NCBI GenBank assembly: GCA_034780895.1
Contig: JAUZTB010000066.1
Location: 13,585,387-13,649,386, forward strand
Source of the DNA: Rhynchobatus australiae
Taxonomy: Eukaryota
Direction of reading: 5' to 3'
Length of the DNA: 64,000 nucleotides
Shown: positions 3,473 to 60,400 of the stretch, one piece after another
Layout of the letters: each line of letters starts with the position of its first letter
Position numbering within the stretch: the stretch's first letter is position 1
Made by a program: the position numbers and the translations under genes
Notes under the pieces: generated by a model
Database searches by the model: none
What the model was told of the DNA's origin: nothing
What the model saw: only the letters and a program-made list of their open reading frames with translations

Positions 3473-6400
3473 CTGTAACATGGAAGGTACAGTGTAAACA
3501 ATGGCATGCACATAGACATTAATGAAATTTCAAAAATAAACCATGCATATAACTTGCTACAGACAACTTGCAGTTTGTAGAAAACTATCGGTTAAACAGT
3601 TTCATGCTGACAGTGTCAAACAAAGTTATCTCATGTAAGACCTACTGGCAGAATGTGAATTCTGTTAATGCACATGCATATTGAATTAATAGAACAAAAT
3701 AGCACAAATGAAGCAACATTAACACAAAGCCTTAAAATGAATCCCTTGTTGAAGTAATCTCAAAAACAGTATTCACATAATTGTGTACGATATGATTTAA
3801 TTGTTCTCGTCTCAATTTTCTTGGAGGCTTTACTGCATCACCAGCAAAAGAGAAATCAAAGAGTTTCCCAACAAATGTTTCATCTGCACAAAAGTGTTAG
3901 TACATGTAGAGAACCTTGAGCGCATAGTTTACATTTGTAGTTCGAGGATTCGAACATTTTCTAAAGATAAAGCAATTTGATTCTTTTCCTGCCACCCACC
4001 TCATCACCCACTACAAATATTTGTGTGCTTACAGTATCCAGCTGCTTTAGTGCAAATTTTTGTTCTCTCTTCTCACTGACTGGACCAGAACTGCCAATGA
4101 CCAACTCTCACATCTACTCCTTTGGACTCCATTAGATTTCATTCCAGTTTCCAAATGGAATAGAAACAATATAGATTTCCATGTTAAGCCCACAATAAGG
4201 CTTTATAGCAACTGGATTTTGCCCACTTCCCAACTTTAGCGCATTTATTCTTCTCCTAGCTGGTCCAGGAAAAAGGGAGAGTTAATTCAAGGATTAGTTG
4301 GAACCTATAATTACATTCATCTCTATCTCAAATGGGCCAACCCAGCATTAGGCAATCTTAAATTTGATAAAGTAGCTAAACTTACTTAACTGAAAAATAA
4401 TTTAATTTTATCTGTTAATCTATCATTTAGCCAAGTTGAGACATTTAAATATATAGTTAAGTTGATTTAGAGGGGAAGGGAGTTGCTGCCTTCCTGTTTT
4501 TACAAGATATTATCCATAAACTAAACAAATCTTAGCTTAGTTGGCAATGATTAAGCACTGGTAAGTTAGTAAAGGTCAATATGCTTTAAGTATGAAATTA
4601 AATCCATTTTGCAAGCATAAACTCACACTGCAGTCCAAAGGCTGAAGTCTTGTGACAATATCATCGGTAGTTTGTCCAAAAGATTTCTGCCCAGATCTGG
4701 TTTCATACATGGAAACAGCTTGCCGATCACGTCTATTTGTGCTTGTATGGGGGGCAAGCTCCTGGCGGTCACTGGCAGCTGATGATGGATGCAGACTAGG
4801 AGTTTGTTGCTTCATTTGTGCATTCTCTGTCTGCAGTTTGTTAATCTGACATGTAATGAAAGAGATCCACAACATCTTAAAAATAGTAATTTAATATCTA
4901 TTCAGGCCCCACCTTCATTCAGTTATTGCATAATTTAAACATTTCTTTTGTTAAAAATTTGACAGTGATGTGTAATATATTAAAGTGCAGAGGAATAAGA
5001 TTCAGTTGCCATGACTACACTATGTTATATTCTCACAGTTAGAAATCAGTGTTTATTAAATATTAGTATGGTTGTGTACAAAAATGTATTTCATAACCAT
5101 TTATATTTTTCCAGTTCAATAGACAAGCAGGCTAGGGTTGCCCAAAACCACACGAAGCACTGGGTAAAGCAGAAATGTCAAAAGGTGCCAGTGCAAACTC
5201 ATGGGAGTTTGGACACATTTATATCCTTAGTTTCTCTCAATGGCAATTTGATCAGGATAGCCAATCACTGTAGACAAACAATTAAATAAAATTGGTCATT
5301 GTTGCCAACTTTAATATTTGCTGATTCCAGAGTAATTTTGAGAGATGACATCAAGGAAAACCTACGTTAATACACAGATGTTGACCATTAGTCCACATCT
5401 CTTTAGTTATAAACTTAACATTAAGTCCCCAACTCTTGTGCACTGCATTTTACATCTTCCTCTTTTCCCCCATTTAGGTACCCTTTTAGAAAGGATTTTT
5501 ATTCTGTTCTATCATGGTTATTTTGGGTGTATAAACTAAAAATAAAATTGCAACTCTATGTGGACAGGAAAGGAATAAATTCTTAGAACTGAAATCTGAG
5601 AGAGATTTAATATTCAAATCTATTTATAACGGGTAGTTACAGGAGGAGTCATACTCTGGTTAAATGTTCATGGTGTCTGCTTATTTGCAAGTTACTCATT
5701 TTCTGCTGACTCTCCAACTATTGANNNNNNNNNNAAAAGACAGTAAACCTGTCCGCAGTGGTGGAAATCTGGATGCTGAATAAAACGGACGGCCTAATAG
5801 AAACAAATAAGTGCAAGGGCAAACTTAATCCCAGGTTACTAACACAAGCAGCATAAGATTTCCTGCCTTCTGTAATTCTTGACCGCAGAGATAGGACAGA
5901 TATTTTGTTGAACCTGGAGGTTATGTAACCTTCTTCAAAGTCAACGTTAATTGTGAGGAATGCTTCAAAAGTCCATGTACCACAGCAATCCACTTCTTCA
6001 ACAGAAGCTTTTGTCTAAATCATTCAGCTCAGATATTGCAGGAAAAAGTCGGCAAAAGTATTTAACTCCTTAGGATATATGTGCACACAGAAGCACAGAA
6101 ATCCCAAAGCTGCAATCAATTGGTAGATGCTGTTTTGCTAACTGTGCTGTTCTTTACACCCCTCTTGACAGAAGCTCCTCAATGCTTAGTGAGAAATCTG
6201 CTGATGAAGCATCATTTGTCAATGGAGAGGAATGGCTGTGAGGGACAGAGGCGAGTATTGTGAATTTGGATCTAGTTTTTTTTAATTACTTGAGTGTTTT
6301 TAAATTATTTTTTTTTAATTGTTTTAGGCTTTTAAGATTTTTAAAGATAAAGCATTTTTAGAAAGTTGAACAGTTTATGCATTTCTGAAACATTAACTTT

Positions 6401-12400: not shown

Positions 12401-15400
12401 ACTCGATCAAAATGTTTGAGGCAATGAGTAGTTAGAATATAGAAAAACTACAGCACAATTCAGGCCCTACNNNNNNNNNNNNNNNNNNNNNNNNNNNNNN
12501 NNNNNNNNNNNNNNNNNNNNNNNNNNNNNNNNNNNNNNNNNNNNNNNNNNNNNNNNNNNNNNNNNNNNNNTGTTGGCGCCGGAAGCGTGGCGACACTTGC
12601 GGGCTGCCCCCAGAACACTCTACGCAAAAGGTGCATTTCACTGTGTGACTATTAAAGATATTTTATCTTATCTTATAAGGGACATGGGCCAAACGCGGGC
12701 AAATGGGAATAACTTAGATGTGAATCATGGACCCTTTGGACTGAAGGGCCTGTTTCCATTGCCACTCTATGACTCTCCAATCTATCCCCTCATAACTTTG
12801 AGCAACTCAGTCTGGTCCCACCTCAGCCTACCCTGCTCCAAGGACACAAACCCAGCCTACTCAATCTCATCGCTAAAACACTCCATTCAGGTAACACCCT
12901 GGGGAATCGCCTCTGCACCCTCTCCAGCATGGTATCCCAGTTCCCAGCGATTAATTGATTAAACCCTTCTGCTGAATGAAATGTCACTTAACGGCTTTAA
13001 AAATAGCACAAGCTGCATCGCTGTTGTCAGCTGTGACTCAATGGCAACACTTGTGGCCACGAGTCAGAAAGACAGTGGGGTTAAATCCTATTCCGGAGGC
13101 TCCAATTCTAAATTGACGCCTCTATCGAACTCCACCCCCTCCGCCACCACTTACTTCCTAGTAACAACTCACTACCAATAAGATTTTCACAAATATAGAG
13201 GTTGTATAATGATAATTATATTTACTTGCTATGGAACAAATGATAATAATCTTTATTTATGTGTCAGATACAATTATAGGAAAATTGTAGGACAATTATA
13301 GGAAAAATATTTCCATACTTTTCTCAGGTTTGATATCATAGAAATGCACAGCACAGAAACAAGCTCCTTTGTCCCACCTCATCTGTGCTCACCGTGATGC
13401 CTATCCACGCTAACATTTGCCTACATTAGGCCTGTACCCCTCGACATCTTTCCCATCCAAATCCCTGCCCGAGTGCCTTTTAAGCATTGTAATTGTATCT
13501 GCCATCACCACTTCCTCTGGCAGCTCGTTCCAGATATTCACCATCCTCTGTGTAAAAAACTTGCCCCTCAGATCTCCTTTCAATTTCTCCCCTCTCACAT
13601 GAAACCTGCGCCCTCTAGTTACAAAATAGAACACAGAAAAACAACAGCACAATTCAGGCCCTACGGCTCACAAAGCTGTGCCGAACATGTCCCTAACTTA
13701 GAAATTACCAGACCTACCCACAGCCCTCTATTTTATTCAGCTCCATGTACCTATCTGACAGTCTCTTGTAGGACCCTATCGTATCCGCCTCCACCACCGT
13801 TGCCGGCAACCCATTCCACGCACTCACCACTCTCTGAGTAAAAAACTTTCCCCTGACATCTCCTCTATATCTCCTCCCCAGCACCTTAAACCTATGCCCT
13901 CTCGTGGCCACCATTTCAGCCCTGGGGAAAAGCCTCTGACTATCTACCTGATCAATACTTCTCATCATCTTATACACTTCTATCAGGTCTCCCCTCATCC
14001 TCCGTCTCTCCAAGGAGAAAAGGCAGAGTTCCCTCAACCTGCTTTCATAAGGCATGCTCCGCATTCTGGGCAGCATCCTCATAAATCTCCTCAGCACCCT
14101 ATGGCTTCCACATCTTTCCAGTAGTGAGGTGACCAGAACTGAGCACAATACTCCAAGTGGGGACTGACCAGGGACCTATATAGCTGCTACAATAAAATAG
14201 TTCAAAATAGTTCATATCAATTGTATGAAAAGAATACAAAAACTTCTATGACCAATGCAGATTTAAATGTGTATTAAAGACATTTGAGAAAAACCTGGCC
14301 TATTCCCGTAACTTGAAAAAGTAGTTACGCAAAATATGTGTACTAATACAAGAGTTTTTTTTGAACTCCTGCAGGACCAAACAGACTGAAAATTAAGTCA
14401 CAGCATGAACTATTTTATTATATCAACATAAAATCATTTAAGCTGCATTAGTTTACCCTTGTTTAACGCCTACATAAACAAATATGTGGAGTGCCAATAC
14501 TTCAGTGGTTAGAATATAAACAAAAACAGATGGCCATTCATTTCCTTAAATACTACTTTCCTGCACGAACCTCAAATATTTATTCACTTTTCAGATCTGG
14601 GCATCACTCGCATATGTTGATTCACTTAACATCTAAAAGTCTATTGATCTCTCTTGAATACACTAAGCCATTGCACCACTATGACAGACTTGGGTAGAGA
14701 ATTCCAAGGATTCATCACCTCTGCGTAAAAAAAAGTCTTCTCATCTTTTCCACAGTGGTCGACCCTTTATTTTGAGATGGTGAACTTCTGTTATAGATTC
14801 CACAACCAGATGAAACATTATCCTTGCATTTATCTTGTGAAACCTTGTAAATTTTGTATGTTTCAATAAAATCACCTCTCAATTTTCTAAATTTGGGATC
14901 ATAGGTTTAGTCAGTCTTTACGTCACAAGCCCACCAACCCTGGAATCAATCTTTTGACCCTTTACTGCACTCTGTCACAATTATAGCCTTTGTATGGTAG
15001 AAACTAACACCATCCAATGTAGTGAAAAAGTACTTCAAGATTTCATAAAACTTCTTGATCAATAATAATAAAAATTTAAATTCATGACAAGGAAATGATG
15101 AGGCTACAAAAATTATGAAGAAAATCACTTATTATATCAAGCCTCGACCCATAAATTCCATAAGGACACAACAGCCATATTTGTTTTACTACTTGATCAC
15201 CTATCATATTCTCCCAACAATCCAACTAAGTTTTTGTGTTTCAAGATCACACAGCAACATGAAACAGAGTGATTTTAGTGAGGTAATTTACACTGGAAAG
15301 GCATACATTTACACTGATTCGCTCAAACATGATCTTCTCTCAACTGTATGGTTGTGGAACAAGAGGAAATATTGAGAGACCTGTCACTTCAAAACAGCTG

Positions 15401-36400: not shown

Positions 36401-39400
36401 TGAAATTACCTCTGTTTTCTATATCTACCTCTGATTCAAAGATCTAAATCATTATTTTTTTAAAGAAAAGGCAATGATTACCATCTAGCCATGGAGAATA
36501 TTCTATTTAACTCACTCAGCCTATGGTCTATGTACCTAAAATCAAGAGATCACACAAGTTTATTACCATCACAAAGCAAAAAACTGCAGGTGATGGAAAA
36601 AGTCAGCAGATCAGGCAGCATCTGTGGAGAGAAACAGAATTAACATTGCAAGCTGATGATCAGTTCTGATGAAAAGTCATCATCCTGAAATATCAACTCT
36701 CCCTACCCTGCTGCCTAGCCTGTTGAGTATTGCCAGAATTTTCTCTCAGATTTCTAGAATCTGCAGTTTTTGCCTTTTGTTTACAATCATAGCTTGACAT
36801 AATCAAATACTATTTAAAAATCTTTACCATAAAAATTATTAGCCATCTAAGCTCTGAAATAAGATGCCTACAGCAAACAAAAGCAATCACCAGAAAAAGT
36901 ACTGACTTTACTCAATGTACCATCCAGTGTGACAATGAAATTGTATTATGCAATCTTCTCTGGTGGTGGTAAGAATTTCTGTGCATCTTACGGCTTGGCT
37001 CTAGGGATCCTGATCACTCCCTGGTGTAGCTCGTTAGGAAAGGGGTATGTGCAAATGCTGACAGGATAAGATTAAGCTACAATACTCTTCACCCTCTCAC
37101 TTGCCACAATGACACCCCACTCAATATAAATTCTCATTGGAACAGTGGCTAGTTTGGCACAATACCAAAGGTCACCCATAAAAATCGTGAGAAAAGAAAC
37201 AGACTTAAAATGACAAATGCAGCAATTTTACACATGCCATAATTTCAGTAGATCTTACTGCATGTACAGATAAAAAGTACATTTGGAGTATTTCAAAATA
37301 CATTCCCTTTGAACAAAGTGTAGAAACTCTAGAATCATGGAAGGTGGTTTCTAAGCTAGTCCATGACCAACTGAATGGTGAAGATTCTGCAGTGAAAATA
37401 GTTAAATTGAAATGAATACAGAATAGTTCAATGCAGTTACAAGCAAAATGGAAAACTATACAATTAGGAAATACTCAAACGCAACACACAAAAAGATTCA
37501 AAAGTAATTGAGTTTCAACATCTATTAAATTTCATAAGCCAGCAAGGAAGCTTAAAGCCAAGCTACATGTTAATATATTAAAGTACTGGAAATGAAATAG
37601 CTGCAGCTAAAAAGTATCTAGTTAAATGTTTATCAGTTGTTTCAGATCCCAACTAATAGATTTGTGCAGATATGGCATTTTCTGTTTATTGCTCCAATTT
37701 CAACATTTATGCTATCCATAAAGGAAATTTCAATATACATGGGTAATAATTTGTTAATATTTTCACATGTCCAGCAGTCAAGAATAAAAATATTCATAAT
37801 AATTCACAAGTATTGTTTATTCATAACTTACTGCTTGAAGTTTCTTTTTGGCTGCCTTAGCCAGTTCTGACAAGTCCAAGCTACTGAAGAGAAACATGAA
37901 AAACAAAACTCAGGAACTAGGTCAATAAAGCATACATCTATAACAATATTAACTTTCACTTGGAACCTGGTACAAATGCTCAAGATGAATCAGTGGCTCT
38001 ATAAAACTGTTCATTACAGATACAAAGAAATTTAGATTACAAGGGACTGAAACCAACTGGAGATAAAGCAATGTCACAAAACTTAATTTTGTTAGGTTTT
38101 CTTTGCAAAGAGTGAGACTTAAGAGATGGAGTTATGGTTACCCCTTGGTTCTGAAACTGGAATACTAAGAAATGGTGCTACTCGACTGCCATTTTATTCA
38201 ATGACAACCTACAACCTGATATCATGAGAACAGCAGTCACTGTCAGTAGAATCCTGCTAATAACATACTGCTTTGCTGACCGGTTCAATCTGTTACCTAT
38301 ACATTTACAATAAATTAGTTTTAAAAGTACCATGCATTGTCTGTGCACTTAGTTAAGGTGAACAAGATTTTAGCTTAAATACTGCCCCAAGGTAAACAGG
38401 ACATACATCTTGAAAGTATTTCTTTTCACATATATCCATATAATAATCCATCAGATCAGGTGTTTATAATTTTGTGTACAGTTTACACATTATCTGCGAC
38501 CATATGGGTTTCATTCCACTTCCCAAAGATGTGCATGTCGATCAGTTAATTGGCCACCGCGAAATGCCGTGTGTGTGTGTATGTGTTGTGGGGAGAGGAG
38601 AGGGGAGTTGACGAGAATATGGAGAGAATAAAAAAAATTGAGATTAATTTAGGAAAAAAGTGTAAAGGGGCGACTGATGGTCACCACGGACTTGGTGGGC
38701 TGAAGGGTCTATTTCTGTGCTGTGTGATTCTATGACACATTAATTTGTTGATCCAGAGAGGGAGTTCCTTGTGTTAACTGTGAATTGTGTAAGGACACAC
38801 AACAAACACATCCCCAAATTACACATGCTCAATTTCCCAGAAAAGGGAGAAAGGAAAGAGAAGATTTTGCATGTCAACTAACTTGTCCAATTGACCAATG
38901 TAGAATAACTCGAAATAGTAATAATGATCATTCCAAAAATGAATAAAGTGCAATCTGGAAAGTAATCATTTAAAATTAAATACATGGAGAGAAATTATCA
39001 AGCCATTACTTAAATTACTGAACTGGTTTGAGTCAAGAATCTATTGAAGTGTCTGTATGGTATCCTTTACACTAATATAAAATTATAGGGAAGAGATCGC
39101 TTGAAATATGGGCTCCATGCACATAAGTGTAACTAGAAATCTAAAGAACAATGTATGAAATCAGCATATTTATCCAAATTATACACCATTTTGTTCTGAA
39201 TTTTGCTTACTTGAATACAAATATCCTTTCTTTATGAGCAGAGCAAACAGCATATGTTGTATGTTCCTGAAATCACAAAACTGATGGNNNNNNNNNNNNN
39301 CAACAACTGAGGGAAGATATGGCGTTTGGAGATAGCAAGTGAAGGATTATGGAACAGTTCAAACAAATTTTGGAGCAAGTCAAAAAGGGTCATCTAATCT

Positions 39401-42400
39401 GAAGAACTGTTTTAATATTGTTCTTCAACAATATTGCAATTTTAACATTCAGGATTCTTGCATGCATATTTGTGGGCTTCACGATAAATTTACAATGAGG
39501 TTAAATTAAGTGCAGTTACATAAATTACATTTTCCTGTAGTGGCTGATGTATTTAGCAGTATTTATAATACGTGGATTGCTTGCATAACATTTAAACAAG
39601 ATTTAACATACAATTTTTTTAAAGTTTGAATGATACTGAAATTTCTCTAGTGATTACTTGAAAGTAGTTCTGATCACAACTAAAAGAACCTTAAGAAATC
39701 AACTTCTCTAGGAAGATCTGCCTTTGTGTTGCCCACTGTCTACTTCGGGGAAATGGTGAATAACTCTAGGTGTAGAGTATTACTTCTGTTATAGTTTTTT
39801 GATTCAGCAATGCTAGCTGGGAGGTGTACCTTCTACAACCTACAAATCAGCAAAAATTTACAATTCTGAGCTCCATGTTGCTCTACCAGCCTACATATTG
39901 GCAGTGGGAGCTGCGTCTGGCCTTGGGCAAATATAGCATCAATAAACAGGTTCAGTTATTCTACAAAATGACAATATAGTTTCCAAAGTTACAGCAACAA
40001 CATTTTGAAGATTCTCGAATCAGGTTTATAAAGGAATTCTCTGGTTTTCAAATTTCAGAATATTTCCCCTCCCCCAAAAACATTTGGCTTGGTNNNNNNN
40101 NNNNNNNNNNNNNNNNNNNNNNNNNNNNNNNNNNNNNNNNNNNNNNNNNNNNNNNNNNNNNNNNNNNNNNNNNNNNNNNNNNNNNNNNNNNNNNNNNNNN
40201 NNNNNNNNNNNNNNNNNNNNNNNNNNNNNNNNNNNNNNNNNNNNNNNNNNNNNNNNNNNNNNNNNNNNNNNNNNNNNNNNNNNNNNNNNNNNNNNNNNNN
40301 NNNNNNNNNNNNNNNNNNNNNNNNNNNNNNNNNNNNNNNNNNNNNNNNNNNNNNNNNNNNNNNNNNNNNNNNNNNNNNNNNNNNNNNNNNNNNNNNNNNN
40401 NNNNNNNNNNNNNNNNNNNNNNNNNNNNNNNNNNNNNNNNNNNNNNNNNNNNNNNNNNAATCTTCACTCCAAATGAAATTGCAGATACTGTATTACTAAT
40501 ACACAAGATAACAGGCATGTGGCAAAGTATTTTCAATATTATCAAATAATTAAGATTGGTTATAAGCTACATCTTTAGGCCAATTACCCATAGTCAATCA
40601 CCACCACAACACTAATCACACCATTTAGGAATTGGAGTTATCTTTTAAATTGTTTCAAGAAGAACACAGGGATGGAACTTTAGTTCTTTTACACTTAACG
40701 TGTTTTAAATTTGGCAGTTTCATGACTTGCAGCATTCAACTATAGCAACATCTCTAATTAAGTGATAACATTTTCAGTTATAATCTAACCACCTTATAGT
40801 CATACTACATTTATATTAATGTTTCTGACACTTCATTATTTCATGAGATGTCTTCTCCCCCTACCACCAGTAGATGAAAAGCAATTATTATTTTTCTTGG
40901 ATATAGGCGATTCATTTTAATACAGTTAGCCTTCAGAGTGTGGAGAGTCTTTGGTGCCAAACNNNNNNNNNNNNNNNNNNNNNNNNNNNNNNNNTTGTCT
41001 AAAGAAACAGACTACAGCTGGAACCAATTAAGACATTAAGGACTAAAAACAACAAATTCCTTTCAATTTGGGGGTTTTCTTGCAGCATGGAAGGATATTA
41101 AAAAATGAAAGTAGGAAAAATGGAAAGAATACCTGAGAATTAGAGAGGAATAACATGTTCAGTGCAGAAGAATACAGCATCCAGGGGGTCAGATAATGGC
41201 ACGTCTGACCTTTTGCTCTGTACCAAACTTCCCATTAAGTCAAAGGGTGCTCCACAGGTTACCAAGCTGAGGTAATGATATACTTTGTATCTGGCCCCTC
41301 GTCTTTACACTAGCCAGAGCTACTGCATCAAGTACAAACCCATTAAGATGTTTACCTGTTTTTTTAGATTTTTCATTATTTCAATGTATATTTATTAACA
41401 ATTAGGTTTTTAAATTAAAAAATCAAATTAAAATTGCTTTAACTATTTTAAATGTGTCAGATGTTTTGGGGACAGCAGCCTTAGGCTTCAATATGTCAGA
41501 TGTGTTTGGGGGCAGGAGCCTTAGGCTTCAATGACAAGAGCTCACTCTAACCAAGGAATACCCATGGAACGGAGGCCAATGCCTCAAGATTGTGGTGGGC
41601 CTTATGACAGCAAAATTTTGATGTAGCAGGGGGCCAGGGTGGGAGTTTCACAGAATCCAGCCCATCGGTGTAATATTATCGCATATTGCAGTCATGATAA
41701 TCTTTAAATATGACAATATGCAGAAGATTTTATAAAACAAATGGCCACATGGTCAGGCAAAATCTGAAGTACCCTGGCAAAGTTAGACCATGACAAATTC
41801 TATGCAGGTACTTCATTTAGTTAATCAATTTAAAACATCAATTCAAGCACAAGTATTTTAAGTACCTGGTTACTGAGGTTAGGGTGGATGTTGCAGTTTG
41901 GCAAGAAATAAATCACAGGCAAGTAATACAGAGAAGCAATGTTCTAAGTTTAGGTAATATTGGCATGCTTCGTAAACAAATGGAAGATCTAAATTAATGA
42001 AAAATACCTCTGGGTCATGCATTTTTGCCGTGTTCTATTTTCCAAGGAATGCAAAGGAGGAAAAACAGGAAAATCTGTTAGAATAAGCAACCTGTGAGAA
42101 CCTAAGAATATTTGTGGGTTATTTGTTACTTTCAGGTCTAAACACATTCATTCTTTGAGACATGGATAGATTAGGGTAAAAAAAACCTCTTCATTCAGTG
42201 CTATTCTATTGTTGCATCACTGTTGAAAATAATAAAAAGGTGACACGTGGGCAATTTCTTCAACAAAATACTGGTGTGATTAGTTGCATTACCATTTGTG
42301 TTTAAAAAAATAATCTAATCACAACCAAAGCTCATCATCCATTTCATTTGCACCATAGAGCAACAAAGTACACTGCAAACTTACTCTATTTTATTCACCT

Positions 42401-45400
42401 AAACTTTAGTTCATGTGCAATGCAAACATATTTAGGTTGGTAGTGCATTGCCTAAGTGAGACCATTAGAATTTTCAAAGCCATTTATATGAATAGAGCTT
42501 TAAAAAGTCAGAAAAAGTTAGGATGCTCAGGAAACTGTGGTATCATTAGAAACAATTGAAGTGTGGCAGGATAATAAATACACCGGACCTTTTTCTCCCT
42601 CCAATAATAACTCCTCTTGTTAAAATGTAACCAAATTATCAGTATGATCACGGGGAATTAATCTAAATTCATGGCCTATCTCCTTGCCCCTCCCCTCNNN
42701 NNNNNNNNNNNNNNNNNNNNNNNNNNNNNNNNNNNNNNNNNNNNNNNNNNNNNNNNNNNNNNNNNNNNNNNNNNNNNNNNNNNNNNNNNNNNNNNNNNNN
42801 NNNNNNNNNNNNNNNNNNNNNNNNNNNNNNNNNNNNNNNNNNNNNNNNNNNNNNNNNNNNNNNNNNNNNNNNNNNNNNNNNNNNNNNNNNNNNNNNNNNN
42901 NNNNNNNNNNNNNNNNNNNNNNNNNNNNNNNNNNNNNNNNNNNNNNNNNNNNNNNNNNNNNNNNNNNNNNNNNNNNNNNNNNNNNNNNNNNNNNNNNNNN
43001 NNNNNNNNNNNNNNNNNNNNNNNNNNNNNNNNNNNNNNNNNNNNNNNNNNNNNNNNNNNNNNNNNNNNNNNNNNNNNNNNNNNNNNNNNNNNNNNNNNNN
43101 NNNNNNNNNNNNNNNNNNNNNNNNNNNNNNNNNNNNNNNNNNNNNNNNNNNNNNNNNNNNNNNNNNNNNNNNNNNNNNNNNNNNNNNNNNNNNNNNNNNN
43201 NNNNNNNNNNNNNNNNNNNNNNNNNNNNNNNNNNNNNNNNNNNNNNNNNNNNNNNNNNNNNNNNNNNNNNNNNNNNNNNNNNNNNNNNNNNNNNNNNNNN
43301 NNNNNNNNNNNNNNNNNNNNNNNNNNNNNNNNNNNNNNNNNNNNNNNNNNNNNNNNNNNNNNNNNNNNNNNNNNNNNNNNNNNNNNNNNNNNNNNNNNNN
43401 NNNNNNNNNNNNNNNNNNNNNNNNNNNNNNNNNNNNNNNNNNNNNNNNNNNNNNNNNNNNNNNNNNNNNNNNNNNNNCCATTATTGCACACAGTCATTAA
43501 ACAATGAAATGCTTCACATCAACATATATAATTGCATTAAGGAAAAATTGCGCTTCTGGCTTTTTTAAATCCCCCAGAATGAGCATTCCAAACATATTCT
43601 TCCCACAAAGATTGCCTTATTGAAAATTCTGAGAAATTGAAAAAAGCTTTTGTTTGCATACATTCTCAACCACTTAAAACCGTAGGAACATTTTTCAGCT
43701 ACCTCAAAAGATTATTCAGATCACATATCAGACACAAAGTAATTAAAATATACAGTAATACTTGCTAAAATCTTCAACAAAATTTTGATCGAAGTATGTA
43801 TTTTCAGAGATCGAAAGCNNNNNNNNNNNNNNNNNNNNNNNNNNNNNNNNNNNNNNNNNNNNNNNNNNNNNNNNNNNNNNNNNNNNNNNNNNNNNNNNNN
43901 NNNNNNNNNNNNNNNNNNNNNNNNNNNNNNNNNNNNNNNNNNNNNNNNNNNNNNNNNNNNNNNNNNNNNNNNNNNNNNNNNNNNNNNNNNNNNNNNNNNN
44001 NNNNNNNNNNNNNNNNNNNNNNNNNNNNNNNNNNNNNNNNNNNNNNNNNNNNNNNNNNNNNNNNNNNNNNNNNNNNNNNNNNNNNNNNNNNNNNNNNNNN
44101 NNNNNNNNNNNNNNNNNNNNNNNNNNNNNNNNNNNNNNNNNNNNNNNNNNNNNNNNNNNNNNNNNNNNNNNNNNNNNNNNNNNNNNNNNNNNNNNNNNNN
44201 NNNNNNNNNNNNNNNNNNNNNNNNNNNNNNNNNNNNNNNNNNNNNNNNNNNNNNNNNNNNNNNNNNNNNNNNNNNNNNNNNNNNNNNNNNNNNNNNNNNN
44301 NNNNNNNNNNNNNNNNNNNNNNNNNNNNNNNNNNNNNNNNNNNNNNNNNNNNNNNNNNNNNNNNNNNNNNNNNNNNNNNNNNNNNNNNNNNNNNNNNNNN
44401 NNNNNNNNNNNNNNNNNNNNNNNNNNNNNNNNNNNNNNNNNNNNNNNNNNNNNNNNNNNNNNNNNTTAATGCTGATGCTCAGAATTCCATCTATTTAGAA
44501 GAAAAAATGACCAATTGGAGTAAAAGGTTAAAAATATGACATTTAATGCTAGGTTGAATCTTTCTACAATTATGGTAAAACTCCATAATCTGCTTTCCAT
44601 TATTCAGAAATCCTTATGGTTCTACATCTGGCTCATTGGGTTTATAAACCCAGTGACCCTGTGTTTATACTCACCTGGGCTCCGTTTCCTGCACTCCCAT
44701 TAACCTCACCAGATTTTGTTCCTTATGTTCTCTTTAAAGACACTGGGTTTACTGGAAAATTTGTTATACTACTCCAGAACACCAAAAAAAATGAAGTGTG
44801 TTGGAGTGATAGGAGTAACATTTAGTTCCGAAAATCTGCTGATCCAACACCAAAGTTCAAAGTGTGCTGGTTTATTGAGTTTTACTGTATTAGTTTTTAA
44901 GATGCCAACAAATATCAAGTCAAAGGGTCCCTAATTTCAGCAAATCTTCAAATGTCTGCAGGAAGCAGAGAATTGGAAATGCAAACATATAGGTTTCACA
45001 AAATTTACAAGAATCGCAATTTTAATATATTTCTGTACCTCACATTGTGAATGCTCCAAAGTATAAGCTTAAATAATTGAAATGAATGAAAAGTAGACTG
45101 CATGGTGTGAAGGCAGTACTAAGCCAGTTTGTTACATTATGACTTGTTTATGCAAATAAATGAATCATTAGAATTGTTGTAAAATAATAAAAATCCTGTT
45201 AAATTGCTAATATCAAGTAATTGGGTGTACTCAAGTGGTATATTCCATAACTATACCAGGTGTGGCCACAGGACAATAGACATTTATTTTTCTTCATGCA
45301 GTTCTTGTTTGGAAGCTAAATTTTCTTCTTTCCTCAGTTTTCAATATTTTCTTTTATATTAGGTGGTTCTCAAAATTGTTTATCTTTTCCCAAACAGGAT

Positions 45401-48400
45401 CAACTTGTTAAACAGACAACAGGATAAATGTTTTCATTAAAGTCACCTCTTTAACTGAGGGAGCACATTAAAAAAAACTATATTACACCAAAGGAGGTGC
45501 CCACTCACTCCCAGCCACAATTGGCAATATTCTGAAATAGTAATTCACTTTGACTCTTCAAAATAGTCAGAAAATTTCACTTCAGCAATTTGATCTCAGA
45601 CTTCATTCTTGTGTTCTTTCTCCATTGATTAATAGGAGCATTAATGCTCAACATCTAGTAGGAGAAGAGAAACCTCAGGGAAACTATCCTATAATCCTAA
45701 GGGCAAAAGGGAGAGAAAGAATGAGGCCCAGGAGGTGAAGTGGAGAATTAGAGCTCTGACAAAAGATGGGATGAGAAAACAGAGGCTCTGTGGAAGGAGG
45801 AGGAGGGGCTAAACAATAGCTCTGAGGGAGGAATATTGGGGGGGGGGGGGCATGAGGGAGAGGTTCCAAGAGAGGAGGACTGTTGCATAAATAAGGGGAG
45901 CAGGTGAAGTAGTGAATATAGTGGTGAGAGAGAAGAATGAAAACGTGTGAATGGGGAGAGTAGTAACAGGCAAAACACTATAAAAATTTGAAATAAGAGA
46001 GTGTGTGTTGGATGGAGCAATGCCGTATGTGCTGAGGGGAAACTGGAAGAGATCATAATGTTAGGCACCAAAATGTGCATCAGTAGTGATAGGTCTTCTT
46101 TTCCTTCATGTAGCTGCTGCCTGCCGAAGTCTGAGGTAGCTAGCTGTTCCAACTGATACTTTGGAAAGAGCCCTATCCCATGGCTCTCAGTGGTTTGTAG
46201 GAGCGGCAACAGGGTCAGTTAAACTTTCAACCGAAAAGCATCTTGTCAACTGCTTCTGTAGCAGTTGGCTTTATTTTTGTTTGATTTTGAACCATTTTTG
46301 GCTCTCGGTTTTTAAATTCCTTTATTTAAATACCTTCAGGTTGCTTTACTGCTGAACCTCAAAATGTGTTCTTTGCTTCTGTGACTTTGGTTCCCATTTA
46401 GTTATGGGGCAAATTGCATCATCCTTTCTTCTGGTGCACAAACTGCTACTTATCTCATGATCCCCTTTAAAATCAAACTGGCTTCTTTCCACCCATGTTC
46501 CCATATCTCTTTTAACATGTCAACTTTAAATGCCATTTGCTATATTAGGTGCGTTTATGTACAAATTTATACTCACAGCACCCTCTACAGGTGCGAGTAT
46601 AACCCTGTTAAAATCAGTCACCATTTATACATAAACTATATTTTGTTCAAACATCGTACTATTATTTAGTTATATTATAACCTTGGCACTATTAAAATTC
46701 AACCTTCCAAAGTAAAATTAGATGAGCAACCTCAGTGTCAATTATGGCAATNNNNNNNNNNNNNNNNNNNNNNNNNNNNNNNNNNNNNNNNNNNNNNNNN
46801 NNNNNNNNNNNNNNNNNNNNNNNNNNNNNNNNNNNNNNNNNNNNNNNNNNNNNNNNNNNNNNNNNNNNNNATAGCAATGTGTTTGCTTATTAAATACCCT
46901 CTGAAAGCCCAAACTACTCAGTTGCTATAACATAACAAAAAACCTGGTGATGGCCTGGAGTTTGGATTCAACAGAAAGGGTCAGTCTGGCCCACACTGTG
47001 AAGTTCTCTTCAATTAGAGCTAAGTAGTTTTATTGAAATTGGGAGGTCTTTCAGAGATTTATCAAGCAAAAGCCTGACAAAGTCATAACTGCAAACTCAC
47101 ATCTTTCCGCAGTTAGGGAGATGCAGCTATAGTCAGAATATAAGATGCAAGATATAGTAGCCATCAATATAAACAAGAATCAACCTATGAATTGTTCAAA
47201 TCTAACAATAATTAGATTTGAAATTACAAAGACAGCTGCGTGAGCAAACACTGCCTCTGTGAAGTGGGCAGACTACCTGCTCACAGTGGAAGGCAACTCA
47301 AGAGATATGGTTTGGAAACTAACATGACTGTGAGACACTTTTGTACACATTGGACAAATGTAGACAAGAGAACCATGTTAATTGGCCTACATCAAACCTG
47401 GCCTCAGACAGAGTTGAGATATTTTACACCACTGCAAAAGAGATCAAGGTTCAAGACTGTATTTTGCCACATAGCACGTCAAGCATTGTCACAGGCATAT
47501 TTATTTTGTTAATCAATAACTGGGGTATTTATGCACCCAAGTCAGTCCTCACAATGCTGTAATAAAAGAGTACCTTGAGTGATTTGTCCTTTTAGAATAT
47601 TGGTGTGAACTACTTTGAATATTCAAAAAACTTGAGCAGTTTGTCTTGTCAGTTAAGATGTGCTCCCATTACATAAATGTAAATCTATAGAACTATTTAT
47701 CTACATCCAAAATATTGAAGTAAACCATGCAATTGTGACAATTGAAATTGTATTTAATCAAACTGATTTCACTCATTAATAAATGGAAAAACAATACATG
47801 CAGTAAAAGTTGATAACTCCCCAGCTGTATTGAAGACATAGCATTTAGAAAACCTACAGCACAATTCAGGCCCTTCGGCCCACAAAGCTGTGCCAAACAT
47901 GTCCCTACTATAGAAATTACTAAGCTTACTCATAGCCCTCTATTTTGCTAAGCTCCACGTAGCTATCCAAAAGTCTCTTAAAAGACTATCGTATCCACCT
48001 CCACCNNNNNNNNNNNNNNNNNNNNNNNNNNNNNNNNNNNNNNNNNNNNNNNNNNNNNNNNNNNNNNNNNNNNNNNNNNNNNNNNNNNNNNNNNNNNNNN
48101 NNNNNTGACCAGAACTGAGCACAGTACTCCAAGTGGGGTCTGACCCGGTCCTATATAGCTGCAACATACAGAACTAGCTGTGCCTTGAACAAATCAGCCC
48201 CAATACAGCTGCACAATCTAGAAATGTGGATAATTGCCCAGATAAATTAAATACACAAAAGGTAAGACGACCATCCAATCAGCTTACTCTCATTCATCAG
48301 CAAAACAATGAAAAATATTGTCAAAAGTGCTATCGAGCTGTATTCACTCATCAATAACTGGCTCAAATTATATTTTGTTTAATTGAACATGGGTCTACAG

Positions 48401-51400
48401 CTCATGAGAACTTATATCCAAACAATGCAGCTGAATTCCAAACGTGAGATGAGAGTGCCGCAGTCAAGGTGTCATTGGTCCCGAGTATATCATCAATAGA
48501 CCCAGTAAAATTGAAATTAACTGTAATCAAGCCAATCAATACCATTGGCTAAAGTGATTCTCAGCACCAAGAATAATGGTTGTGGCTCCCAGAAGCCAAT
48601 CACCTTAGCTTCAGAACATCATTGTTAAAATTCCTCAGGGTAGTGTCCTAGGCCCAATCACTCTCAGTTACATTGGAAAGGATGGTTTGAATGGGGATGG
48701 TGTAGTGGACAATATAGTGGTTAGTCCCATATATGGATTATGTACAGGTAGGAGAGCAAGTTGTGAAGAGGACCAAAAGGAGGCTACAAAGGATAGACTG
48801 AGTGAGTGGATGAAACCTGGTAAATGAAATACGTGGGGAAAATGTGAAAATGTCCATATTGGCAGAAAAATAAAAACATTAAATGGTAAGAGACTGGGTG
48901 TCTAAATGACTGCTTCGCAAAAAGCTAGCATGCAGAGCCAGAAGTAACAAGGAAAATTAACAATGCTATTGTTTACTGAGAGGAGAAATGAAATCAAAAA
49001 GAGGATTCAAAATGCTCCAGTTATATAGGGTATTGGAATGAGTACTGTATACAATATCAGGGATCTCTTTATTTAAGGATGAATGTAAGTACACTTGAAG
49101 CAGTTCTTGGGATTACTAGATAGATACTTGGAATGGGCAGATTGGTTTATGAGGAAAGGGTGGACAGGCTAGAGTTGTATCTGCTAGAATTTGGCAGAGT
49201 GAGAGCAGACTTGATTGAAATGTACTAGAATCTGACAGGTCCTGGCAGGTCAATGTAGAGAGATGGTTTCCTCGTGGGTGAACTGCCAGGAGGTTGCCCA
49301 TTCAAGACACAGGCAAAACTTTTTTTGTCATGAGTCTTTGAAACTCTCTACCTCAACCAACAATGGAAGCTAGTTTTTGTGTACATTTTAAAGCAGAAGT
49401 AGATCCTTGATAAACAATGGCTATCATGGGCAGATGGGGATGCAGTGTGGATACAATGATTAGATCAGCTATGATTTTATTAAATAGCAGAGCAGGCTCA
49501 AGGGATCAAGTGTCCTACTGTTCCTACCTTTTATGTTCTTCAGATAAGTGAGGCAGTTGGTTCCTGCATGAGAAGATAGCTAGACATTATCCAGCCATGA
49601 ACTGATAAATCGCAACTTAAATTTGCAAAGTGCCAGGCAATGACCATTTCCAAAAAGGGAACAGCAATAATCAATTTCTTGTGAAACGATGATCATTAAT
49701 TTCCTATCAAAAACTTTTGATTGGGGGGGAAAGGACAAAGAATTGTGGCAGATCACAAGCAGCAGAAAATGAACCAAACCAGCCAAACAATTACTTCAAT
49801 TCCAGACTTGCAATTACTTGGTAGGGAGAGGCAGCAGAAATGGAATACTTTCCACTTGCCTGAATAACAAACTACAATTCAAGAGGGCAACACTATCTTT
49901 AACCAAGCAACCCATGTGACCACACTCCACTCACCTAAATATACTCTCTCTCCATCCACATGGCTGCAGTGTTTACCATCCAGACATTTTACTTCCCAGC
50001 ACTACTTCAGCAGCTCAATCCAAGCTCCTACAAGTTTCCCTCCAAGCCAAACACCATCCTCATGTGGAAACAAATACTATTATTTGTCATCACTGGGACT
50101 AAGATCTCGGAATTCCCTACCTAATAGCACCGAGTATCAGCACACCGCTACCTTCTCAAACACAATTAGTGATGGCCATTAAATGCTGATCATGCCAGTC
50201 TTGCCCACATACTAAATATGAATCAAAGAATGTCCTTTTAAGCATAGATCCTGATATCCATGAGATAGAGAAGGGTAACACTTAGGAAGATGGAGATAAT
50301 CAATCAACTTCAAGATTCTCAGTTACACATACAGCCTCTCAAGTGCTTTTGCTAAAAATAATGTACATTGTACCTTAATAATTGCAATACTTTTATCATT
50401 TGAACATTTACTGGCAAAATTAGAAGCCAAGAGCCATATTATTGGTAATCGCATATTTACTGCATTGTGCATTTATGTACTACTCACTTTTGGAATGCAA
50501 TCAGCAGGATAACTTACCCTCATTATAGAAGAGCAACTGCGATGACAGTGCGAGACCTTTAGATCAAAAGGTCTATAAGATGGACTAACAGAATTATTAT
50601 CAAAACACCTTCACAACAAATTAAAATATACCAGAACTTAAATTGGTAGCCCCAATTTAACACAAAACTTCTTACCAAATTTGAAGTTACTCCAGACAAT
50701 CTTAGAAAGCAGCAGCTTGCAGACCACAACTCCAACTAAAGATAATCTGTATTTTGTAGTTTAGTTTCACATTTACATAGGCCTTGTTAATTAATTTTAA
50801 ATTTTTCTGTGTGGAGAAAAAAAAAACTAATCCCTGCCTGATCAGCAGGTGATTTGATCCCAGGCTCTGGACAAAGCTGCTTTTAACCTAGATGCTGGGT
50901 ATGGACATTATGCTAACAGAGATTTTATTTCCTGCATTGGAATGGCTTCACTGTTCTCAAACCAAATATGATGGTTGGCTTTAAATTTAAANNNNNNNNN
51001 NNNNNNNNNNNNNNNNNNNNNNNNNNNNNNNNNNNNNNNNNNNNNNNNNNNNNNNNNNNNNNNNNNNNNNNNNNNNNNNNNNNNNNNNNNNNNNNNNNNN
51101 NNNNNNNNNNNNNNNNNNNNNNNNNNNNNNNNNNNNNNNNNNNNNNNNNNNNNNNNNNNNNNNNNNNNNNNNNNNNNNNNNNNNNNNNNNNNNNNNNNNN
51201 NNNNNNNNNNNNNNNNNNNNNNNNNNNNNNNNNNNNNNNNNNNNNNNNNNNNNNNNNNNNNNNNNNNNNNNNNNNNNNNNNNNNNNNNNNNNNNNNNNNN
51301 NNNNNNNNNNNNNNNNNNNNNNNNNNNNNNNNNNNNNNNNNNNNNNNNNNNNNNNNNNNNNNNNNNNNNNNNNNNNNNNNNNNNNNNNNNNNNNNNNNNN

Positions 51401-54400
51401 NNNNNNNNNNNNNNNNNNNNNNNNNNNNNNNNNNNNNNNNNNNNNNNNNNNNNNNNNNNNNNNNNNNNNNNNNNNNNNNNNNNNNNNNNNNNNNNNNNNN
51501 NNNNNNNNNNNNNNNNNNNNNNNNNNNATAGTGATGGGAATAAAAGGCAAGAAAAACTCATGTGGAATAAATAGTGGCATAGAACTTTGGCAGAATGAAT
51601 ATTCCTGTGCTATAAACACTTCATAAGAGCGAGTAAACATTCAAAGAAAAGTGAATTGTTAAGTTGACTAATGCACATCAAGCACTAATCTGGAGTGAAA
51701 ACCATTGCAGAGCTACTGAAAACAAAATTCACCTTCCAACTCCCTGAAGCGTACACAATTTGAATACTCTGAAAAGCAGAAATATTTGAATAGATGGTAC
51801 TGAACCACCTATATGAAGTGAGTAAGCTGTTTTGAATTGTAGTTAATTCAGTAGTTTTTTTTTACTTATGTAACTGTACAGTTACAGAAATAAAAATTCC
51901 ACTTAAGTATTTACAGGGCTGAAGGAGTATCAAAACAAATCAGAATGGAAGCCAGTGTAGCACACCAAATGTGAATGCTGAGAATACACAAGTCAAAACA
52001 GCAGTTAATCGGGTAGCATTTGCTTTTATGTAGAAATACTGAATTACAAATTCATGTAATGACCTAGAATGATGTGAAATGAGAAATTACACCTGGAATA
52101 TACTTAAGGTTTAAGTATATTACACTTGGAATATACTTAAACCTTAAGTATATTCAGCGGAATAAAGTTGAACTTATGCTAACGTGGACAATTGGCATTT
52201 ACTTACCCCAGAATATAGCATACAAGTCTGAGGGATTGTATGTCAGTATGTGTATAATTGCAACATTATCACCTGCACAATTATAGAACTTCAAAATGTT
52301 AGAAGTGTTATATAAACAAGCCAATATGACAAGGAATGGAACAAATAACACCAGTCAAGCAAGTCTTAAACAAAGATACTGATTGATTNNNNNNNNNNNN
52401 NNNNNNNNNNNNNNNNNNNNNNNNNNNNNNNNNNNNNNNNNNNNNNNNNNNNNNNNNNNNNNNNNNNNNNNNNNNNNNNNNNNNNNNNNNNNNNNNNNNN
52501 NNNNNNNNNNNNNNNNNNNNNNNNNNNNNNNNNNNNNNNNNNNNNNNNNNNNNNNNNNNNNNNNNNNNNNNNNNNNNNNNNNNNNNNNNNNNNNNNNNNN
52601 NNNNNNNNNNNNNNNNNNNNNNNNNNNNNNNNNNNNNNNNNNNNNNNNNNNNNNNNNNNNNNNNNNNNNNNNNNNNNNNNNNNNNNNNNNNNNNNNNNNN
52701 NNNNNNNNNNNNNNNNNNNNNNNNNNNNNNNNNNNNNNNNNNNNNNNNNNNNNNNNNNNNNNNNNNNNNNNNNNNNNNNNNNNNNNNNNNNNNNNNNNNN
52801 NNNNNNNNNNNNNNNNNNNNNNNNNNNNNNNNNNNNNNNNNNNNNNNNNNNNNNNNNNNNNNNNNNNNNNNNNNNNNNNNNNNNNNNNNNNNNNNNNNNN
52901 NNNNNNNNNNNNNNNNNNNNNNNNNNNNNNNNNNNNNNNNNNNNNNNNNNNNNNNNNNNNNNNNNNNNNNNNNNNNNNNAAAAAAATCACCATGCAAAAC
53001 TATTTTGAGAATCCACCTTTAGAACCAAAATGAATGCAGAGTGGAGGCCAGAAATAAAACAGATTATTTATGAAATTCTGAAACAGGGATGTCACTGAAA
53101 CCAAAGTAAACAAAGAAATGGAAGAGGTATCAGCTTTCAAATAAAATGGGAATTTTAGTACTGTAAAAATGAGTGAATCTGTGTCAATGAGATTGAACAT
53201 GTACATTCTCAATTAACTATTAATCTTTCACAAATGAAACAAGATGGAGTCTCACCTGTCAGCCATTTGGGGGATGACATAATGCCCATTTTTGTGATCT
53301 ATGGAAAAAAGAGAACAAAAACAATTTAGAGATAACAAACCACCAAGGGGCAAGGCCTACATAAAAGTGTCTACTTAGCTCAAGCAAACAATCCTTGGAG
53401 ACTAGGTTTCAGGTTCAGTGAAAAGCAAATAGCATTTCCCACTGCTCTTGAAGCAGACTGTACAAAACATAAGCCATTAAACATCAAAATAGGACTATTT
53501 TAAAAAGACTGTAGCCATAATTTTAAAATTTGACTTACTTAGCCAAAATTTCAGCAAGTTGCTACAACTTACTGCATTGATTCTTATGACAAGATGCCAG
53601 ACAAAATTTGGTTATTATTGGTTTCTACAATAGAAATAAATGCTTTGTTGTAAAATGCAAGTAATGTTCCAGAGCTAAGTGGGTTCTATTATATATTAAT
53701 TCTAAGGTTGCATTTATCACAATTATATTTTCTTTGAAGCATTGCTCTTGGAAGTGAGCACTGAAGACAAAACTGCTTATTTCTGGTTGCTACTAAGTGC
53801 TACAGTCCTTATGCTGGTGATGCCCCTGCAGAAAGATAGGTAGAAAATTCCAGGATATTATAATACCAACAAAAGAACAGCAAAAGTCAAATCGGTAACG
53901 CCAACATGAAAAAAGATTGGAAGTGATAGCAGTTGCATAATTTTCTGTCTTTGAAAGTGGTAGAAGTTGACCTGCTCAAAGGTGCTGTTGACATAACTAT
54001 GGCAGGATGCTGCAGTGTCTTTTGAAGATTGTACATGCTCCAGCTAGAGTCTAGCAAGGATTTCAGGAATAGTTGCTGGGAAGGATGGGTGAAGGGGTGG
54101 AAATCTGGTCTGGCAAAAGTCAATTAAGTAGACTAATCTATCCAGGATGGTAATAAGTTGTCTGAATATTATTGCAAAATTCAGATGATAATCAAGTCTT
54201 CTATCACACTCATCATAAACCTTGTAGTAGTTGTGGATGAGTCTTTAAATTCTCATGACACANNNNNNNNNNCGCAAAACATTTTCTGAAATAGCTCTCA
54301 ATTCTCATTACAAATCATAATTTGTAACTCTCAGCCTCTCCAGGTAAAGGCAATCAATTTTGTGCCTATTTAAAAACATTTCAATTTGTGGGTGAAATGT

Positions 54401-57400: not shown

Positions 57401-60400
57401 TGAAAATAAGAACATTCTCAATGTAGCTCTTGAAAGTCAATTCTCAGAATAAGATGGACTACATTTGAAGCAAATTACAGAAAAATTATCAATACCATCC
57501 AACACAAAGCAGATGCATGTAGAAATGTTACACTTGATTCAAGCAGTGCTTGACAAAAGGTTGAAGGCATGCTTCAGCAGTGGAGGAGAGGCTTTTAGTC
57601 TCAATGACAATCACCTCAAAAATGACAAACAATCACCAGAACATATTTAGGTGATTAAAATGCTGTTTCCTTAATGGTCCAGTGGTCACTGCACCAGATA
57701 AATGATAAAGTCAACCTTACAGACTGTTTATTAAATTTAGTTTGAGCACATTTAGGGCCAATGAAATAGCCTGAAAAGATAGTGCATGCAAACTGAATAA
57801 TGAATTCCAATACGGAATTGAACTTTAAAGGGCATTTTTAAAAAAAAAACAGGGATCTCTAGATAACCATACCAAAGAGCAAACACAGGAACAGAGGACT
57901 GTGCTTTATCGTTCTCCATTCATCTCTACCGAAATCTAGATGCCAATTGTGAAAGTGTGCTTACATTTGATTAGGATTGACTGTGATAACAGAACAGTAG
58001 CCCAACAATTTTGTTCATAAAATATAGCAAAAGTAATTGACATTTTTGGAAGCAGTGTTGCAATTTTCAGAGAATGGAAAAAGGAAACAAGCAACATATT
58101 ATACAAGTAACCATCAGTCTGCGTGCAAGAATGACAAACTTGTTTCACTACTGCAAGACATTTGTTATCCAAATTCAGATTTGAATTATCCCATCCAAAC
58201 TCATCAAGCTTCAAGACCTGGGCCTTTGTACCTCCCTCTGCAATTGAATACTTGACTTCCTCATCGGCAGACCTCAATCAGCAAGGATTGGTAACATCTC
58301 CTCCTCGCTGATCATCAACACAGGAGCACCTCAAGGCTCCGTGCTTAGCCCCCTACTCTACTCACGACTGTGTAGCTAAACACAGCTCCAATGCCATCTT
58401 AAAATTCAGCAATGACAGTACTGCTATTGGACGAATCAAAGGTAGAGATGAGTCAGCTTACCAAAGTGAAATAGGACACCTAGTTGAGTGGTATTGCAAC
58501 AACAACCTCTTGCTCAATGTCAGCAAAACTAAAGAGCTGATTGTTGACTTCAGGAAGGGGAAGGAGGGTGAATATATGCCAGTCTACACTGGAGGAAATC
58601 AGCAGTGAAGAGAGTCAGCAGCTTTAAATTCCTGGGCATTAACATATTGGATGACCTATCCTGGGCTCAGCACATAAATGCAATCATAAGGAAAGTGAAC
58701 CAGCGTCTTTATTTTCTTAGGAGATTAAGGAGGTTTGGCTTGTCACCAAACACTAATAAATTTCTACAGATGTACTGTTGAAAATATCCTGACTGGTTGC
58801 ATCATGGTCTGGTATGGCAATTCGAGTGAGCAGGAATGTAGGCAGCTGCAGAGAGTAGTGGACTCTGCTCAATACATCACTGGCACATCCCTCCCCACCA
58901 TCGGTCGCATCTAGAGGCGCTGGCTCAAGGCAGCAACAACCAAGATACCCACCTTCTGGGCCATGCCATCTTTTCGCAGCTACCATCGCGCAGGAGGTAC
59001 AGAACCCTGGAGTCCCACACCACCAGGTTCAAGAACAGCTACTTCCCTTCACCGATTCAGTTCTTGNNNNNNNNNNNNNNNNNNNNNNNNNNNNNNNNNN
59101 NNNNNNNNNNNNNNNNNNNNNNNNNNNNNNNNNNNNNNNNNNNNNNNNNNNNNNNNNNNNNNNNNNCTTTACACTACAGTAGACTGTTTCTTTTTGGCTC
59201 TAAAACTTTATAACAGACTAATGCCTCAATTCAGAACTTCAAAGTGTATTGCACACTGTTTTGCTACTTTTGGTACCTTGAGGTATGGGAGGAAAAGAGT
59301 CAGATGAAGTGCTTGTACAACAACTTGACAGCAAAAAAAAAGACATCTAGACATAAAAGGATTTGATCTGACCTTTAAACCATGAGAGTTGAATTCTACT
59401 GAGTTAAAATCGCTGAGTGAAATATGTGCAGCAGACTTAAAACTGAATTTTTATTTTGATACAAAAGCTTTATCATTTTTCAGTTTATCGTTATGAACAA
59501 AAGAGAAATTCTGCCATTAGATCAATTAGTTTTGCATACCAACTCAGACTGCCAATCAACTAAAGATTAAGATGTAGACTGATAATGTTTTATTGAAAAG
59601 CATGCAACTTGGCACAGAACAGCAGAGTGCATGAGCTATTGTGTTTTAAAGGACCGGATCTCACTGGCTTATGCTGGCAGTCAGACAATTAAACACATGT
59701 TAGGAATATCCAGGCGAACATGCAAGTACTGGATTTAATGACAGATTTAGAATGCCAAATCTGATGCTCACTCCACTAGTAAATTGCTCATTGATTTCAC
59801 CATGGAGTCCAGCTGTTGAACCACTCAGGGTTGTTTAGATTCCCTGCAAGTTACACTGAGGAAAATCATCAATTGGATCTTGTGCCTGGTACAGGATCTG
59901 AGAGCCTCAATGATTTTGATAGGGTTTATAGGACTGTGGATTANNNNNNNNNNNNNNNNNNNNNNNNNNNNNNNNNNNNNNNNNNNNNNNNNNNNNNNNN
60001 NNNNNNNNNNNNNNNNNNNNNNNNNNNNNNNNNNNNNNNNNNNNNNNNNNNNNNNNNNNNNNNNNNNNNNNNNNNNNNGAGGGGGGGGGGGGGGCGGGGG
60101 AGGAAATAAGGCTCTTTGCTTTGCTGCTGGGGACCCTGCCATCACTCAAGTCATGCTATTGGAGTCCAAGGTGCTTCAGGCTAGTGAAGTGGCTCTCTGC
60201 AAACAATTCAAGATTTAGTATGTGTGAGGTGACTGGTTATCATCATTCTGAGCTAAGGAACTGAGCCCTTTGATGTGATCAACTTTTAATTAGCAAAGTA
60301 AGGGCTGACATAAAAGAATGTACTGATTTTGTTGCTAAAATCAAGATGAGGCGAAATGGAACTGAAAGGTTAAAGAAATAAAAGTAATGCAAAGAGAGCC

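Follow-up and report, generated by a model that had tools for sequence, protein, structure and literature searches.

A 27-nt microexon in the GIT1 gene of the ray Rhynchobatus australiae, with probable neural inclusion

The GIT1 gene of the ray Rhynchobatus australiae contains a 27-nt cassette exon that is probably used chiefly by neural and neuroendocrine cells; in related species it is either included or skipped, depending on the sample. It lies within the 64,000-nt stretch of DNA analysed here (the window; contig JAUZTB010000066.1, positions 13,585,387 to 13,649,386 of the forward strand). The exon is already known, being annotated in cartilaginous fishes and listed as a neural exon for both zebrafish and human, and its sequence identifies it as orthologous to exon 8 of human GIT1. 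The original prediction, made from the letters of the window, described a 27-nt AG..GT exon with flanking motifs; this exon is confirmed as real, with every coordinate and motif holding, and the interpretation placed on it is partly supported. The exon and its neighbours are as follows.

53256..53298, minus strand: constitutive GIT1 exon upstream of the microexon, 43 nt, with RNA joints in relatives
42008..42034, minus strand: GIT1 cassette microexon, 27 nt, phase 2/2, adding nine residues; assigned by sequence as the human exon 8 orthologue, with inclusion joints in relatives
37832..37883, minus strand: GIT1 exon after the microexon, with a tandem (NAGNAG) acceptor whose two sites, 37883 and 37880, add or remove one serine

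Judged by sequence the host gene is GIT1, as originally proposed, and not GIT2. A search with one of the window's ankyrin exons brings up chondrichthyan GIT1 at 100% identity, three variable exons match sawfish GIT1 at 174 of 175 positions and other rays at 171–173 (an ungapped count, which underrates skates), a ray-like pattern, and GIT2 occupies a locus of its own, on contig C57. In a tblastn comparison with chondrichthyan GIT1 the window exons cover residues 136 to about 585, with the final exons just beyond the window. An alternative upstream acceptor at 4846–4875 (minus strand) adds about 30 nt to an exon further along GIT1, and the corresponding residues are present in an annotated stingray isoform (P0040). 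Runs of N within coding exons of both GIT1 and GIT2 (L008:2873-2972 and L006:5996-6005), with duplicated letters on either side, look like assembly gaps and could break gene models. Elsewhere in the window, high-copy repeat fragments at 47840–48170 and 38670–38730 draw thousands of reads in each run examined, and open stretches within GIT1 introns (13413–14175 and 14718–14906 on the minus strand, 58135–59050 on the plus strand) may be remnants of non-LTR retrotransposon reverse transcriptases, which they resemble.

The microexon, read from 42034 to 42008, is preceded by AG and followed by GT, and encodes TRQKCMTQ between two split codons; both it and the upstream exon end two bases into a codon, so that inclusion adds nine residues and keeps the frame. 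Its host intron (53255..37884) is 15,372 nt long, of which 3,183 nt are N and 12,189 letters (79%) are readable. Across the readable intron the microexon is the top peptide match, with a BLOSUM62 score of 44 against the identical sawfish peptide and 36 against the mammal peptide, and the runner-up site scores 23. The same readable sequence contains 414 in-frame open AG..GT candidates of 3–51 nt, 35 of them of 27 nt. The microexon alone passes all four acceptor and donor filters, a result that is descriptive because the thresholds were chosen with the candidate known. The 301-nt stretch around it is present in one copy in the genome.

A total of 204 proteins was screened for the insert, of which 14 were dropped for having fewer than 250 residues, 22 lacked one flank, and 168 had both flanks readable. 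Among these 168, the insert is identical in 34 chondrichthyan proteins, and an insert of the same length occupies the same place in 10 mammalian, one lungfish, 81 teleost, and two turtle proteins; the inclusion isoforms retrieved comprise no amphibian, gar, coelacanth or bird sequences. When cluster members are added, an annotated isoform with the identical peptide is found in 16 of 23 chondrichthyan species, chimaera included, which bears out the expected conservation across sharks, rays, and chimaera. The suggestion that annotation may have missed the exon is weakened by these annotated isoforms, among them that of the elephant shark (Callorhinchus milii XP_007898953.1), although the isoforms retrieved for the other seven species all lack it. 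The elephant shark protein and Pristis pectinata X2 have the same insert as the ray and, as predicted isoforms, say nothing about tissue or regulator.

The human counterpart (VastDB HsaEX0027507, distinguishing GIT1-A from GIT1-C) lies in the same intron of the same gene, in the same phase, is also 27 nt long, adds nine residues, and shares six of the eight internal residues of the ray peptide. With this position, phase, length, and sequence likeness, and with no second candidate in the readable intron, the ray exon is, at the level of sequence, the orthologue of human exon 8, in agreement with the orthology originally claimed. Identity to the eight internal ray residues is likewise six in other mammals and in lungfish, five in zebrafish (whose 27-nt exon, DreEX0034900, thus has the same length and a more diverged peptide), and three to four in turtles.

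At two positions of the insert teleosts and turtles have Ala and Pro, in place of the Thr/Ser and Gln of shark, lungfish, and mammal, a distribution that conflicts with the species tree. It could be explained if the vertebrate GIT1 intron had held two distinct 27-nt exons, of which chondrichthyans, lungfish, and mammals retained one and teleosts and turtles the other. We consider this improbable. The 79% of the ray intron that can be read contains no second matching exon, the retrieved proteins include no species with both insert types, the peptide of a side-necked turtle (P0596) is intermediate, and the zebrafish exon is catalogued as orthologous to the human one (PMC12626424, accessible portion). 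On the first three of these grounds a single exon with convergent changes is likelier, and the residues shared by teleosts and turtles (window 42008–42034 compared with P0157, P0113, and P0596) likely reflect convergence.

An origin of the exon no later than the ancestor of jawed vertebrates, as first suggested, is supported. In 149 further family representatives, hagfish P0387 included, the nine-residue insert was found in none of the 62 proteins with both anchors, which is not evidence of absence because one isoform per cluster was sampled. The broader claim of deep conservation of neural microexons also holds, and is not new: it had already been established from shark to human, as described in the available parts of 10.1101/2024.09.17.613571, where the SRRM4 response is conserved from shark to mammal (the main text does not name GIT1), and of PMC10987577, where microexons are conserved from shark to human over 450 million years. 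A further study, as far as its accessible part goes, infers 270 neural splicing gains for the vertebrate ancestor from 20 species including elephant shark (10.64898/2026.09.05.749416).

RNA was examined in eight of 23 listed runs over window positions 37700–53400, all from relatives and none from the species of the window (shares of words 0.46 and 0.11–0.12). Inclusion joints are present in three runs, as the original prediction anticipated, and skipping joints in four; one run (X23) has no joint, and in none of the eight do both forms occur together. Both inclusion joints, with use of the proximal acceptor 37883, are found in three contig runs, X4, X8, and X12 (organisms A, D, and F, from three studies). 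Skipping proceeds through the distal acceptor 37880 in X21 (nine reads), X22 (one read), and X1 (a contig), and through the proximal acceptor in X3. Apparent offsets at the upstream exon reflect two synonymous changes carried by the relatives, and the splice sites are exact once these are allowed for; the rows shown for the three inclusion organisms have no differing letters inside the exon. Five of the eight runs are contigs, presumed to be RNA although none of the listed records is registered as such; X4 is rated 'probably DNA', yet its contig joins exactly across both introns. The finding that the two forms never coincide in a run is not a measurement of PSI, because contigs lose rare forms and junction reads are few (9, 1, and 0).

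These joints support alternative splicing of the exon in relatives, where it behaves as a cassette, and the contrast between X4, which includes it, and X1 and X3, which skip it in the same organism and study, is consistent with a tissue switch. The tandem acceptor is also real, with 37883 and 37880 both used in RNA of relatives and both serine forms annotated; the ray is in this respect unlike the bony-vertebrate GIT1 proteins retrieved, which have only the one-serine form. The 35 open 27-nt stretches in the intron, the derivation of the RNA from relatives of the window's species, and the seven species whose isoforms lack the exon would all be compatible with a chance AG..GT stretch, or with a vestigial exon unused in the window's species; either is very improbable, however, given that the splice sites are intact, that chimaera, sharks, and skates have the identical peptide, and that the inclusion joints of three related organisms fit exactly.

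The signals around the microexon are listed below, with negative positions counted upstream from its first base.

42077..42081, minus strand: predicted branch-point-like CTAAC at -47, identified from sequence
42054..42074, minus strand: pyrimidine tract displaced upstream, at about -40..-20
42051..42053, minus strand: TGC at -19..-17, placed as is usual for the SRRM3/4 intronic enhancer and a candidate for that function
42035..42043, minus strand: acceptor AG with a purine-rich stretch ahead, in the last 9 nt before the exon
42002..42007, minus strand: microexon donor, scored by an approximate matrix as the weakest of the nine GIT1 donors that can be read
41964..41968, minus strand: GCATG, a word of RBFOX type some 40 nt inside the intron that follows the microexon, a candidate element

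The ray exon shares most features of the SRRM3/4 (eMIC) programme: the 3–27 nt length range, within which neural microexons fall and at whose upper end this frame-preserving exon lies, a displaced tract and branch point, a TGC, deep conservation, and a gene for a GTPase regulator. Between positions -12 and -3 its acceptor has six purines in ten, as against one to three at the eight other correctly positioned GIT1 acceptors, and the closest other AG upstream is at -42. The TGC sits between the displaced tract and branch point and the AG, as is characteristic of the class; a TGC near an AG is nonetheless frequent, with 2,368 other AG sites in the scanned sequences having one. The donor may depart from the class: on an approximate matrix it scores 5.7 bits, compared with 6.0–12.8 at the other GIT1 donors (nine being readable in the window), although two constitutive donors, at 6.0 and 6.2 bits, come near it. 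A weak donor, one of the features first noted here, is no hallmark of the class, in that the accessible text of 10.1101/2024.09.17.613571 describes SRRM3/4-dependent exons as tending to stronger 5' splice sites. A second RBFOX-type word, TGCATG, lies inside the microexon (minus strand), where it spells Cys-Met.

For human GIT1 exon 8, both binding by SRRM4 and neural and neuroendocrine inclusion have been demonstrated, whereas for the ray exon we infer them. In the accessible part of PMC6317919 exon 8 is a nine-residue microexon that SRRM4 binds and promotes, and isoforms with and without it differ in focal-adhesion stability; in the tables seen of PMC12626424 the human exon has a neural dPSI of 76 and a dPSI of 88 on eMIC overexpression, and the available text of 10.1101/2022.04.02.486809 lists GIT1 among islet-microexon genes. 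The zebrafish git1 27-nt exon, termed orthologous to the human one, has a PSI of 95 in neural tissue, 45 in muscle, 46 in immune tissue, and 62 in endocrine pancreas (PMC12626424, same tables). No git1 or git2 row is present in the supplements of PMC7821500 (eight files) or PMC12626420 (12 of 13 files). Neural enrichment of the ray exon is highly probable.

Dependence on SRRM3/4 is a separate matter. Two loci of SRRM3/4 type, with SRRM_C domains (PF15230) above the cut-off, at G000:C66:32365801-32365944 (L011) and G000:C57:11112970-11113113 (L012), point to the presence of such a regulator in the genome. Such dependence does not follow from the TGC. As reported in the available part of 10.1101/2024.09.17.613571, 21–26% of SRRM3/4-dependent microexons have no UGC/TGC; the motif is typical and neither necessary nor sufficient. 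The zebrafish exon, although neural, is unchanged on loss of srrm3/4 (in the accessible tables of PMC12626424, a dPSI of -0.73 as the lowest value among three mutant comparisons). Our estimate for the ray exon leans modestly towards strict SRRM3/4 dependence, held back by the behaviour of the zebrafish exon and by the weak donor.

We think it rather unlikely that the ray exon, like its zebrafish orthologue, is neural-enriched with little dependence on SRRM3/4, other factors such as RBFOX acting through GCATG, and that it is included in muscle or immune cells too. Consistent with such independence are the contrast in a single zebrafish table between git1 and a 6-nt git2a exon, which drops by 62 in the same mutants, and the muscle and immune PSI values given above (PMC12626424, accessible tables), together with the GCATG 40 nt downstream of the ray exon and its weak donor; the GCATG word has only five letters, however, and may be there by chance. 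On the preferred reading, in which SRRM3/4 drive neural inclusion, the exon would be skipped by default, being short, with its tract and branch point distant from the AG and its donor weak; in neurons, binding of SRRM3/SRRM4 at the TGC would likely favour the early assembly of the spliceosome, possibly assisted by RBFOX-type factors.

In the protein, the insert forms residues 254–262 of P0041, in the linker from the ankyrin repeats to the first Spa2-homology repeat, and is followed by a helix at 268–278 and by Pfam GIT_SHD at 273–301. The Spa2-homology region binds PIX. The segment 252–263 is predicted to be unstructured, with pLDDT under 50 (model mean 63.6), although the low values at the insert may in part reflect the few alignment rows that contain it. 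A full-length PDB search retrieved a solved GIT2 fragment, 6JMT, which has a gap in the alignment in place of the insert, and GIT1 C-terminal fragments; the search with one ankyrin exon retrieved only ankyrins and DARPins. The basic insert is thus predicted to be a flexible loop, and would likely tune partner binding beside the PIX-binding region while leaving the fold unchanged. A literature search found no publication on a binding function of the insert.

The paralogue GIT2 also has a microexon in the corresponding intron.

G000:C57:29219789-29219794 (L007:5089-5094), plus strand: GIT2 6-nt microexon, in the paralogous intron and the same phase, with a strong donor and a TGC at -20

It was predicted from DNA ahead of any protein comparison, as the single in-frame TGC-bearing candidate in a scan of the paralogous intron at the GIT2 locus, with the expected effect of replacing a serine by Arg-His-Leu. 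These residues occur in 11 of 119 proteins from the GIT2 search (120, less one teleost protein seen earlier), eight from thorny skate and three from the bamboo shark Chiloscyllium plagiosum, and a further five of 56 cluster members have the insert (two from skate and three from catshark, the latter with Arg-Leu-Leu); the exon thereby matches annotated isoforms in three chondrichthyan species. The accessible tables of PMC12626424 contain a 6-nt neural git2a exon that depends on srrm3/4 (dPSI -62), catalogued in zebrafish and human (DreEX0034907 and HsaEX0027514), and since the gene and the length are the same, this is likely the exon of the ray.

Because the GIT2 exon lies in the paralogous intron, both microexons may predate the GIT1/GIT2 duplication. 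The two are alike in intron, phase, and TGC, and differ in length and peptide. Both SRRM_C loci are on the contigs that carry GIT1 and GIT2 (C66 and C57), as expected for duplicated chromosome segments. Against common descent are the difference in length and the lack of peptide likeness beyond the first Arg; recurrent gain of neural exons in the same genes, which is reported to be common, also counts against it. Likeness of the two acceptors was considered as proof of descent and rejected as within chance, with 119 of 3,698 window AG sites and 87 of 2,368 TGC-bearing AG sites scoring equally, and no 27-nt-like exon was found in GIT2, where the top score was 23. Tandem NAGNAG acceptors adjoin the microexon introns of both paralogues (GIT1 window 37880–37886, minus strand; GIT2 L007:5712-5717, plus strand), and for GIT2, as for GIT1, annotation has both serine forms. 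We propose tentatively, as somewhat less than an even prospect, that one microexon present before the genome duplication separating GIT1 from GIT2 gave rise to the 27-nt GIT1 and 6-nt GIT2 exons, which diverged in length, that teleost GIT1 escaped SRRM3/4 while the ray keeps the ancestral dependence, and that the tandem acceptor is equally old. The GIT1/GIT2 pairing was not found in print, including the accessible portions of 10.1101/538223, 10.1101/2024.10.15.618524, and PMC6724607, in a search that left most subscription papers outside its scope.

The 27-nt exon itself is a known exon confirmed in another lineage, which is of value for annotation and unsurprising. In the GIT1/GIT2 pair, where SRRM4 acts on human GIT1 while zebrafish git1 shows no such response, there is a compact natural test of how microexons originate and of how their length and regulator change, for which the ray sequence is an outgroup that could polarise the change.
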